A program made the translations under genes and the position numbers. The notes under the pieces are model-generated. The model saw nothing but the letters and a program-made list of their open reading frames with translations, made no database searches and was not told where the DNA came from. A stretch of 64,000 nt of DNA from Octopus vulgaris (taxonomy: Eukaryota), in contig OX597832.1 in assembly GCA_951406725.2 (NCBI GenBank), positions 6,138,001 through 6,202,000 on the forward strand. The letters run 5' to 3'. Of this stretch, positions 55,929 to 63,269 are shown one piece after another (positions within the stretch are counted from its first letter, which is position 1; every line of letters starts with the position of its first letter).

Positions 55929-55964
55929 TATAAAAAGCCGACCTCAGGGTGATTCAAGTCATTC
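55929..55964 (+). promoter_or_regulatory. Core promoter: TATA box plus initiator
   Basis: TATAAAAAG at 55929-55937 and TCATTC (Inr TCAKTY) at 55959-55964. The predicted +1 A at 55961 is 32 nt downstream of the first T of TATA. Confidence 0.7.
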
Positions 55965-56063
55965 GTCAGCTGATTGCCAAAGTAATCTTCTCTACCTACA
56001 AACCTCGTGGGAGATAACAACAAAAAACCTCTTCAATCCACATCAAGTGTGATCACACCAAAA
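55961..56063 (+). other. Non-coding exon 1 (5' UTR) of the secreted peptide gene
   Basis: Unique sequence, contains no ATG, follows TATA/Inr and ends at a consensus donor AAA|GTAAGT (56064-56069). Confidence 0.65.
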
Positions 56064-56326
56064 GTAAGTATTGCTTTGACATCGTTTAGCCGCACTTTTC
56101 GAGAACACTTTTACTTCATTTGACTTTTGAAAGCTGAAATATCCTCTCGAGTTAAACACTAACTTTACATTCAATTTTTCTCTTTCTTTTATTTTTGCCA
56201 TTGTCTTTTTCGCTCTCACGAATTTTTCTCCATTTCTACATCTCCATACACATTCACACGCAGGTATTTCTCATCGGCTTTGTAATTCCATATATTAACT
56301 CTCTTCCAGCAAATCTTTAATTATTG

Positions 56327-56955
56327 AGGCGGCGAGCTGGCAGAAACGTTAGCACGCCGGGCGAAATGCTTAGCGGTACTTCGTCTGCCGTTACGTTCTG
56401 AGTTCAAATTCCGCCGAGGTCGACTTTGCCTTTCATCATTCCGGGGGTCGATAAATTAAGCACTAGTTACGCACTGGGGTCGATGTAATCGGCTTAATCC
56501 GTTTGTCCCCTTTACGTTTAGCCCTTTGTGGGCAATAAAGAAATCAGAATTGTTAGCATACCGGGCGAAATGCTTAGCAGTATTTCGTCTATCGTTACGT
56601 TCTGAGTTCAAATTCCGCCGGGGTCGACTTTACCTTTCATCCTTCCGGGGTCGATAAATTATGTACTAGACACACTGGAGTCGATGTAATCGACTTAATA
56701 CCTTTGTCTGTCCTTGTTTGTCCCCTCTACGTTTAGCCCCTTGTGGGCAATAAAGAAATTAGAATCGTTAGCACGCCGGGCAAAATGCTTAGCGGTATTT
56801 CCTCCGTCTACATTCTGAGTTCAAAATCTGCCGAGTTTAACTTTGTCTTTCATCCTTTCGATGCCGATAAAATAAGTACCAGTTGACTATTGAGTCGATG
56901 TAATCGACTATACCCTTATCCCAAATTCCAGGCCTTGTTCCTATAATAGAAACTA
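56327..56955 (+). mobile_element. Head-to-tail trimer of family B SINEs in intron 1
   Basis: Three units starting at ~56327, ~56545 and ~56761, each cagaa..gttagca.gccgggc.aaatgcttagc... Confidence 0.85.
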
Positions 56956-57001
56956 TTATTTCTAACTCTTTAACTTACATCGTCTTTGTCACTTTACACA
57001 T

Positions 57002-57058
<57 letters not shown>

Positions 57059-57160
57059 ACTATTGAACAATTAATCACTCTCCCTATCTAGCTAGCTAAC
57101 TAGTTGTTTACTTGCCAATGAAGCTACCTTGCTACCTCACAATCTACCTCCCTGTCTACC

Positions 57161-57200
<40 letters not shown>

Positions 57201-57624
57201 ACACTCCTTGGCATTGTTTCTACATCAAACTTTCTTCCGATTAAACCCTACACTTTTAACTACTTGCTTACTTACTCCATGTCAATCTCTGGCTATTTAA
57301 TTGCTATACTTCTTTATCCTCTTACACACTTACATATACACACATAATTTCACACAATTTCACTTCTATCCTCTCACATCTACATACTCATATCATTTTA
57401 CCCAATCTTTTTCTCAGCCTCCTATATCTTTTAATGTATTCATATTTTTTCGGTAATCATAATAACATTATATTTTGATCTTCATTTTTCAACAGGTTTT
57501 AAACAAATCTTGATTGTTTTCCCATTCAGCATAAAAGTTTATACACCTGTGTGTGTGTGTGTGAGCATGCATGTATATGTGCGTGCATGCATTTATGTAT
57601 GTGTGTGCATATATACATACATAC

Positions 57625-57659
<35 letters not shown>

Positions 57660-59893: not shown

Positions 59894-60035
59894 ATGTCTC
59901 GCCTTGTTCTCATCCTCCTCGTTACATGCTCCACCATGGGCTTCGTACTGGCTGCACCTTCCTACCTAGATGACACCAAAGGTAATACCGTGACACATTA
60001 CATCAGTATCGAAGATTTGAAAAAATTAGCTGATG
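59894..60035 (+). CDS. Secreted prepropeptide, coding exon 1 (gene exon 2): signal peptide and start of pro-region
   Basis: Acceptor ttctttctttgcAG (59883-59884); ATG at 59894 with A at -3; MSRLVLILLVTCSTMGFVLA|APSYLDDTKGNTVTHYISIEDLKKLAD; donor G|GTAAGT at 60036, phase 1. Confidence 0.85.
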
Positions 60036-60334
60036 GTAAGTTCTCTAAAGAATCTTCATTGTCTATAGAAAGTCGGGGAGCTAACAAAAACAATAATAGA
60101 TTAGTTAAAATATCTAGCAGTATTAAATTTCGTCTCGCAACATCACAGATCTCAATATCATCGTGGTCGATTTGTCTTTCACCTCTTTGTAATCAATAAA
60201 ATAAGTTACCAGCAATACTGCATTTTTATAAGATAATCATTTTTAATATCTAAAAAACAAAAGACGTAAAGTCGAAAAAGACAAAACTCGAAACGACATA
60301 AGATGAGGTGTGACTGTATTTGAAATATATACTC

Positions 60335-60546
60335 TCTCTCTTTTACTCTTTTACTTGTTTCAGTCATTTGACTGCGGCCATGCTGGAGCACCGCCTTCAG
60401 TCGAGCAAATCGACCCCGGGACTTATTCTTTGTAAGCCCAGTACTTATTCTATCGGTCTCTTTTGCCGAACCGCTAAGTGACGGAGACGTAAACACACCA
60501 GCATCGGTTGTCAAGCAATGCTAGGGGGACAAACACAGACACACAA

Positions 60547-60577
<31 letters not shown>

Positions 60578-60745
60578 CATATATACGACGGGCTTCTCTC
60601 AGTTTCCGTCTACCAAATCCACTCACAAGGCATTGGTCGGCCCGGGGCTATAGCAGAAGACACTTGCCCAAGATGCCACGCAGTGAGACTGAACCCGGAA
60701 CCATGTGGTTGGTAAGCAAGGTACTTACCACACAGCCACTCCCAT
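60335..60745 (-). mobile_element. SINE family A, full-length, in intron 2
   Basis: Close reverse complement of 3185-3592. Confidence 0.88.
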
Positions 60746-61289
60746 ATAGAAACTATATATAGTTTCGCTTCCATATTTGGAGTTTATTCAAAGACCATTG
60801 AAGGGCTTCACTTTTTATTTATCCAGGGTCGATAAAATAGCAACAGGAAGATGTTGCAAACGATTAAATCACCCATCGCCGTCTTCTTTGTGAATATGAA
60901 CCTTGTACTGATTCAAAAGAAGTCATTATATAGCGAGTCTACTGTGACAATAATTATCTAGTAAACCTGTCCCATCACGCTTGTGTGGTTCTTAGTTAGC
61001 ATCGCCATTGACTTAACACAGTCATAAACATTAGAACTAATCTCTTACTTTTCTGTAAATCCAGATCATAAGACCAAGAAAAACAAAATCTTTCCATAAA
61101 CGCTGATTTGGTAGTTAATTCTCGGAAAATTAAATCCATGGCTGAGTTTCTATTCCAAATAGAAGCTTCTTTAGCTACTAATCTTATGTTTTTGGATACG
61201 CTATAAAATTCATAACTTTTTTATTTCCTCCTTGCAAACAACCATGCAAAGATTTATTATTATACCTATGATCATTACTATTTATGTAC

Positions 61290-61890
61290 ACAAGGTGGCG
61301 AGCTAGTAGAATCGTTAGCACACCGGGCAAAATGCTTATCGGCATTTCGTCTGTCTTTATGTTCTGAGTTCAAATTCCTCCGATGCCTTTCGGGGTTGAT
61401 AAAATAAGTATCAATTAAGCACGGGGGTGGTCTATGTAATCGACTTACACCCTTCCCCGAAATTGTTGGCTTTATACCAACATTTGAAATCATTGTTATT
61501 TATGTAGTCAAGCTGACGAGCTGGTTGAATCGTTATCGCGCCGAAAAAAATGCTTAGCGACATTTCGTCCGCCCTTATGTTCTAAGTTCAAATTCCTCCC
61601 AGATCGACTTTACCTTTCATTCTCTCGGGTTCGACAAAAAAGTACCAGCTGAGTACTGGGGTCTCTGTAATCGACAAGCCCTCCTCCCCAAAATTTCAGG
61701 TTTTGTGCCTATAGTAGAAAGGATTATTGTTTATGTAGTCATTCCAGTTCTTTATGTTCTGAGTTCCGCCAAGATCGACTTTGCCTTTCACCGTTACAGG
61801 GTTGGTGAAATAAGTACCAGTTGAGCACTGGAGTCTATGCACTCGACTAGCCCTGACCCTCGAAATTTCAGGCATTGTGCCTATAGTAGA
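61290..61890 (+). mobile_element. Cluster of three family B SINE copies in intron 2
   Basis: Units at ~61290, ~61510 and ~61750 with the shared core. Confidence 0.8.
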
Positions 61891-63141
61891 AATTTATTTA
61901 TGTATTCATTCATGGTGGCGAGTGCATCGGACGAAATGCTTTAGCGGCATTTCTTCCGGTATCTGGACGATTCGCTTTCAAATCCCGCTTCTTTGTTTCT
62001 TATTGGAATGAAACAAAAAAATTCAGAATTTTTGTAAGTGCAATGAATACAGCATTTCGGCAGCTTTTTCAGTCAATCTATAAAATTAACAAATTAAATC
62101 TTTCCGCTACACTGTAAAATTAATCCTTCCTCTCAAAGCTATGTGGATTTGGAATTAACAGAACAAGCGGATGAAATAATCGTCAGTTATATTGTGATTT
62201 CTTTGCTAACAGCAATGAGCAGAAACTGTGTGCAGCACCTAAGCTGTTTGGGTCATTGAAAGTTGAATGGTTTTCCAGTGACACAATTCAAGTGATGGGA
62301 TGTAAAATGTTGAACCTTTGCCCGGAGGCAATATAGACACAATACTTATTGACAGGAAAGTGAACAAAACCGTTAAAAGCAGGCACATTACAAGGTTGTT
62401 GCTGGAACAGAAATAGCCGATATATGTCGGTCAAAATTAATTCGGTTTAATGTTAATAACCATCCTTTAAAGTATATGCCAAAATTTTTATTCTAATATG
62501 CGGAGAGAACTATGTAATGGAAGAAACGATTTACTTCATTTGTTCAGCGATAAATTATTAAAATATCAATACACGCCAAGCAGATCGGTTACTGTGATAA
62601 AATGTGAACGAATTTTTTCTTTCGCCCAAATCTGTGGCACACCCTCGAGCAGAAGATAATCCCTCGACCAGCTGACTCTTCAAATGATTTAATATTTTTG
62701 GCCATAGGTATTTCACTTGCATTTCGAATTTTTCTTGAACAGATTCGAACTCTTTTACCTGATCCTGAAATCAATAAAGTTAATTACTATTTAACTATTT
62801 CTGATAAGGAAATTCAAGAAATTGGTCATACACTCTTGATTTAATTTAATTTATTCATGATTTCTCGGGTACATAAACATCGTGAATTAAGTAATCTGGC
62901 ATCGACTCCATTGTTGTTGTTTTTTTTATTCCTCGTTAAAGTAATTTTTTTCGCTTACTTTACTAAAACTCTAAAAAATAAAATGAAGTACACACAGCCT
63001 TATCACCTTATAAATATGTAACCTTGAGCATATGCAAAATATTTCTATCTGATTTTTCTATTTTTCTATATATTGATGTTACTTTCTTACTTTTGTTCTT
63101 TAATTATCACTCCATCATATATATATATTTATTTATTTTAG

Positions 63142-63269
63142 TTGCCAGCGATTTGGACAACATCTCCAACATGGTTCAAAGGCGTAAACGCAGTTTGTCC
63201 AGCTTCCTGGTTCAAATCATGACGAAAGCCCAAAAGAACTCAACTACAGCAAGATACGCAATGTTTTAA
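63142..63269 (+). CDS. Secreted prepropeptide, coding exon 2 (gene exon 3): RRKR site and 25-aa mature peptide
   Basis: Acceptor tttatttattttAG (63140-63141). G+TT joins in frame to give VASDLDNISNMVQRRKRSLSSFLVQIMTKAQKNSTTARYAMF, TAA ending at 63269. Spliced CDS is 142+128=270 nt, 89 aa. Confidence 0.85.

Follow-up and report, generated by a model that had tools for sequence, protein, structure and literature searches.

Neuropeptides and peptide hormones are released from larger precursors in an established order, in which signal peptidase acts first, furin or the prohormone convertases PC1 and PC2 then cleave at basic sites, and the basic residues are finally trimmed off by a carboxypeptidase. 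Lists of cephalopod neuropeptides are compiled through homology, and the motifs of the protein examined here lie outside the mollusc and spiralian sets searched. We analyze a three-exon gene on the forward strand of a 64,000-nucleotide stretch of the Octopus vulgaris genome (assembly GCA_951406725.2, contig OX597832.1, positions 6,138,001 to 6,202,000; hereafter “the window”, in whose numbering coordinates are given). We put at roughly two in three the probability that its 89-residue product is a neuropeptide or hormone precursor, which would be cut into a 40-residue and a 25-residue peptide acting on a receptor. The product is already annotated, without a name, as a hypothetical protein.

Several described systems come close to this arrangement. 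Members of the NPY/NPF family (PF00159) have a signal sequence, a 36-40-residue amphipathic-helix peptide and, beyond a basic site, another short peptide; unlike them, the octopus gene has neither an RxRF/Y-amide nor a Pro-rich arm, its intron differs, and its tail is conserved. Precursors of the PDF/PDH and DH31/calcitonin types combine a signal, an acidic helical associated peptide, a basic site and a C-terminal peptide, and they are the top neighbours of the octopus protein in a protein language-model comparison (Atlas), but the octopus protein has no amidation Gly or family motif. PDF/PDH was set aside, as PF06324 has no match at the locus and no Gly is present for a C-terminal amide. Vertebrate PTH and invertebrate PXXXamide/iPTH resemble it in that a linear peptide with Ser as its first residue comes after the basic site. 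In iPTH, however, amidation is strictly conserved and Pro usually stands at position -4 (excerpt of PMC7224569), whereas the octopus protein has no amidation signal (G plus basic residues), no Pro at -4 and no PF01279 match at the locus, and this family was also rejected. Frey/C11orf94 (PF15878) is a small protein with a hydrophobic N-terminus, a basic site and a short tail; it gives no sequence match, and the Atlas lists it from chordates. The molluscan DREP peptides offer a parallel as recently found signalling-peptide precursors without earlier annotation, but they are described with disulfide bonds (PMC10501145), and the octopus mature part has no Cys.

Predicted precursor architecture and conservation

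The spliced gene itself is certain, its exons, exon 2-3 splice, reading frame and conservation being direct observations. Exon 2 (59885..60035) carries a 9-base leader, the start codon at 59894, residues 1-47 and the first base of codon 48, and ends in a GTAAGT donor; the coding part of exon 3 (63142..63269) ends with the stop codon at 63267-63269. The 142 coding bases of exon 2 and the 128 of exon 3 add up to 270, so that intron 2 (60036..63141; 3106 bases, with high-copy repeats inside) lies in phase 1 and the encoded protein is 89 residues long. The ATG at 59894 is the first usable start because exon 1 has no ATG and carries stops in this frame. The original prediction had placed a three-exon gene with a phase-1 intron and an 89-residue product at 55929..63269; all of its coordinates hold, and a check of the window sequence found every element at the position assigned to it.

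Among 24 sequencing runs, none on record as RNA, 20 contain at least half of the query words. Four runs were compared with the locus: X1 (organism A), X12 (organism B, separate study), X15 and X18, of which X1 and X12 are presumed to be RNA. One contig each in X1 and X12 (two of the four runs) covers 59885-60035 and continues directly into exon 3 across the predicted junction 60035/63142, and the four letters between the contig pieces at this junction are the first four bases of exon 3. Runs X15 and X18 gave no exon cover, and no DNA control came from either. A processed gene copy behind the spliced contigs is unlikely because the genome searches, whose counts are lower bounds, found one good locus; the second matches in the genome (L002 and L004) contain stops, have E > 3 and were rejected. 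Run X12 shows three coding differences from the window, two silent and one altering residue 34.

The product begins with a predicted signal peptide (residues 1-20; 59894..59953), recognizable by pattern from a hydrophobic core (Kyte-Doolittle value, KD, 2.6) and a conserved V-x-A/S followed by A-P at the cut, where V18, A21 and P22 are invariant in five sequences. The first predicted peptide, residues 21-60 (59954..63179, split by intron 2), is acidic and amphipathic from about residue 36. It is followed by RRKR (63180..63191), a furin/prohormone-convertase consensus that is identical (4/4) in all full-length relatives, and by the second predicted peptide, residues 65-89, which with the stop codon occupies 63192..63269 and has 25 residues, a mass of 2824 Da and a net charge of +3. 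As originally claimed, this 25-residue peptide has no Cys and no amidation Gly. The signal peptide, furin-type site and C-terminal peptide are all conserved in relatives.

Read as a prohormone, the protein would enter the secretory path through its 20-residue signal peptide and be cut by signal peptidase after residue 20. Furin or PC1/PC2 would then cleave at RRKR, after R64, and a carboxypeptidase would trim the basic residues. The products would be a helical peptide of 40 residues and a free-acid (unamidated) peptide of 25, at least one of which would signal through a receptor, most probably a G-protein-coupled one. Secretion, cleavage, trimming and receptor signalling are thus the steps that we infer. 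Most of the Atlas neighbours are precursors of peptide hormones (PDH, DH31, NPF, galanin, CCK), a result that favours the precursor layout without pointing to any one family. For receptor screens the reading would supply two defined peptides that can be synthesised, and for octopus cell atlases a marker.

When 1.84 billion representative proteins were searched, four matches had E <= 0.001. These were the cluster of octopus records, GAB1605380.1 of Argonauta hians (63% identity), the Logan protein P0008 (35%) and P0009, a dog ankyrin-repeat protein (E 5e-4) that we rejected as a chance match. With relatives at 63% and 35%, the gene is not the orphan that it had been supposed to be. A profile search (4 of 2071 candidates) added P0010, which is the same as P0008 as far as the position that aligns with intron 2 and then continues with Gly and an early stop; the unspliced window frame likewise reads Gly past the intron 2 donor. 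Divergence at this point would imply that the phase-1 intron is shared and the genes are therefore orthologous, and the gene may be present across cephalopods.

Between the two Octopus species the sequence is nearly frozen. The exon 2 query led to P0003 (1 of 68 candidates), whose cluster includes CAI9736542.1, a hypothetical O. vulgaris protein with the same 89 residues, as has database record P0004. The O. bimaculoides sequences XP_014773698.1 and A0A0L8HBJ6 are identical at 88 of 89 positions; the single difference lies in the signal peptide, leaving residues 21-89 (69/69) identical between the two species, and comparable near-identity is also seen in their known neuropeptide precursors. 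The gene is contained in three genome annotations, so the expectation that annotation would easily miss it is not supported. The longer N-termini of P0003 and P0005 are read-through of the leader, which is untranslated here. The O. bimaculoides orthologue P0006 (UniRef100_A0A0L8HBJ6) bears the name “RxLR effector protein”, clearly an error of automatic labelling, and the analysis corrects both this name and the N-terminal extensions of the two models.

In the four full-length sequences V18, A21-P22, D41, K44, L45, L52, N54 and M58 are invariant, as are RRKR-SLSS (61-68), STT (81-83) and Y86; KK at 43-44 is not conserved as a pair. Among the three diverged sequences, the tail has 25, 25 and 26 residues with charges of +3, +5 and +1. 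The 25-mer appears the likelier ligand because SLSS after the cut and STT-x-x-Y near the end never change, in contrast to the variable basic linker that separates them; the 40-mer would be a real second candidate. Both relatives carry a dibasic pair within the tail linker, where the octopus protein has single lysines, and a shorter C-terminal piece may therefore be released. In each of the three diverged sequences the first segment is exactly 40 residues long, with net charges of -4, -7 and -1 and a hydrophobic moment of 0.64-0.69. Conserved and fixed in length, it is not the plain acidic spacer of the original prediction.

A number of observations weigh against the precursor reading. In Argonauta the tail shows no higher conservation than the first segment (15/25 versus 26/40 identical residues, p = 0.79); the expectation that it would be fails there and is borderline for P0008 (11/25 versus 8/40, p = 0.052). 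Pfam searches on exons and full proteins gave sub-threshold noise only, and a PDB profile search gave six chance matches (E 0.13-3). Amidation and disulfide are both absent, unlike in many neuropeptides, and R-x-K-R is also cut by constitutive furin on non-signalling secreted proteins. The Atlas neighbours have only 105-148 of 256 features in common with the query and do not agree on a family; moreover, shuffled proteins reach 0.9 in 4-10 of 100 cases, and the recognition score of P0008 is below threshold.

The absence of a recognised family, also claimed at the outset, extends from Pfam and PDB to the literature: a full-text search on four accessions and two motifs found no paper, and topic searches listed no description of it. 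Motif searches of the supplements of PMC8557429, PMC10501145 and PMC7693380 were negative, as was that of PMC6425005, in which two files were covered in part; there, one motif had three matches, and the two passages shown belong to an unrelated long protein. Searches of the genome for the PDF, PTH, ELH and CRF families gave no match at the locus, a result weakened by the intron that splits the first peptide.

Possible descent from NPY/NPF

One account of the gene's origin is compatible with the precursor reading and is not its alternative. It holds that the gene is a remote NPY/NPF duplicate in which the helix was kept as residues 25-60, the RF-amide end turned into the furin site and the flanking peptide became conserved; we regard this as possible but improbable. 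The genome's own NPF lies on another contig (L022, G000:C17:61781051-61784149, with L026:1882), and its coding exon ends in an Arg codon at a phase-2 donor, the next exon beginning F-G-R-S. This NPF exon aligns ungapped and at the same offset with all three diverged sequences (43, 85 and 1 of 2000 pairwise shuffles). Against the three-sequence profile, 1 of 3000 full shuffles and 2 of 3000 pattern-keeping shuffles reach the NPF score, as do none of 151 transposon-protein windows and none of 55 P0009 windows. The alignment register places the typical molluscan NPF G-K-R on R62-K63-R64, the peptide directly follows the signal in a precursor of similar size, and the Atlas neighbours include NPF, with scores of 0.88 and 0.86.

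The likeness is nevertheless thin. NPF was picked from many families and tested post hoc, so that the corrected p would be about 0.05-0.1 on an estimate of some 100 families, and the decoys were confined to shuffles, transposon-protein windows and P0009 windows. The single-pair hidden Markov model score against NPF is 5.3 bits, identities to the NPF helix are 5, 5 and 8 of 22, the NPF active end matches at 1 of 9 positions, and PF00159 has no match. There is no RF/RY-amide and no Gly before the basic site. The intron that defines NPF genes falls between the second and third base of the RF/RY Arg codon, according to an excerpt of PMC7314547; L022 has this Arg-codon intron, but the intron of the present gene is in phase 1 in codon 48. 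The same excerpt (PMC7314547) describes PrRP-type genes in which one peptide adjoins the signal and is interrupted by a phase-1 intron; that intron fits, but the RF-amide is absent and the type was rejected.

On these alignments a common origin with NPY/NPF is doubtful, and we do not class the gene as an NPF. A bolder form, in which an undescribed cephalopod peptide system arose from an NPY/NPF duplicate, the appetite-type amidated end gave way to a furin site and the once-disposable flanking peptide became the conserved ligand of an orphan receptor of the octopus nervous system, is likewise a long shot. Were the link to NPF real, an old ligand would have given rise to a new one by losing its active motif.

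Non-signalling and venom alternatives

The product might instead be secreted but act outside the nervous system, perhaps as a reproductive or glandular factor that constitutive furin matures, as with Frey/C11orf94. Its R-x-K-R is the furin consensus and amidation is absent, both of which fit, and with either query the Atlas ranks Frey first or second, at 0.91. Yet only 138-139 of 256 features are common to the two, and the Pfam Frey model does not match. Reproductive proteins, moreover, usually diverge faster than 88 of 89 identical residues between species would allow, and we consider this explanation rather unlikely.

The suggestion of a venom or antimicrobial peptide, which had stood beside signalling in the original prediction, is very improbable: the signal-pro-mature layout, a basic and moderately amphipathic tail (moment 0.51) and the linear hormone mimics that octopus venom employs, according to an excerpt of 10.64898/2026.02.02.703354, speak for it, but the single locus found (a lower bound) shows no expansion, all 69 mature residues are identical across two Octopus species, the P0008 tail falls to a charge of +1 and a moment of 0.31, and a text search of the O. 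vulgaris salivary-gland proteome supplement (PMC7693380), a weak negative, found no motif or accession. Of the roles originally proposed, signalling is thus the one favoured.

Upstream exons and genomic neighbourhood

Exon 1 (55961..56063) is non-coding: it has no ATG, contains in-frame stops and ends in a GTAAGT donor at 56063, and its start is placed by an initiator (Inr) consensus. A TATA box (TATAAAAA at 55929) and the Inr (TCATTC), at a spacing of 30, would form a putative proximal promoter (55929..55964). Such a pair is common in the window, with seven matches on the forward and five on the reverse strand, so it is weak alone and counts only in context; the promoter region is kept in the read-through translation of P0005. 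The O. bimaculoides model has a longer form of exon 1, from an acceptor at 55918. Intron 1 (56064..59884) spans 3821 bases with GT-AG ends, and the exon 1-2 junction is taken from the database models P0003 and P0005.

The three exons of the original prediction stand, but they are likely joined by one further upstream. Residues 2-47 of P0005 (O. bimaculoides) match window positions 48354-48491 at 85%, with an in-frame stop in the window, and the gene thus probably also has a four-exon form with an optional non-coding exon at 48357..48491, a proposal that follows the O. bimaculoides model. This exon would have a pyrimidine-rich AG acceptor, and its donor would be either GTAAGT, after 48466, or GC, after 48491. 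The GTAAGT donor lies within sequence that the O. bimaculoides model treats as exon; the position of that model's own donor reads GC in the window, at the edge of a repeat-like element.

At the other end, a contig in run X1 extends the 3' untranslated region at least over 63270..63572, and no AATAAA occurs downstream of the stop within the window. Inside intron 2, the stretches 60294-60889 and 61188-61932 are very high-copy repeats, with contig depth of up to about 10^6.

A neighbourhood scan of 149 of 197 filtered open frames, in the window and 120 kb flanks, found transposon domains, a weak calponin-homology frame and a sub-threshold YukC match, which give no synteny clue. DDE transposase fragments (PF13358, PF01359) lie on the reverse strand at 51610-52044 and 2550-2792 of the window, and Helitron fragments (L018:7223-8724, forward strand) just upstream of it. 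Retroelements occur 30-50 kb downstream (L014:1187-9010, reverse strand, and L013), where an 875-residue frame with reverse transcriptase (RT), RNaseH and integrase-zinc domains shares the span with endonuclease and RT frames of a LINE-like (long interspersed nuclear element) element. The calponin-homology match (E 3e-4) falls in an open frame at L013:8371-8814 on the forward strand, possibly an exon of the next downstream gene.

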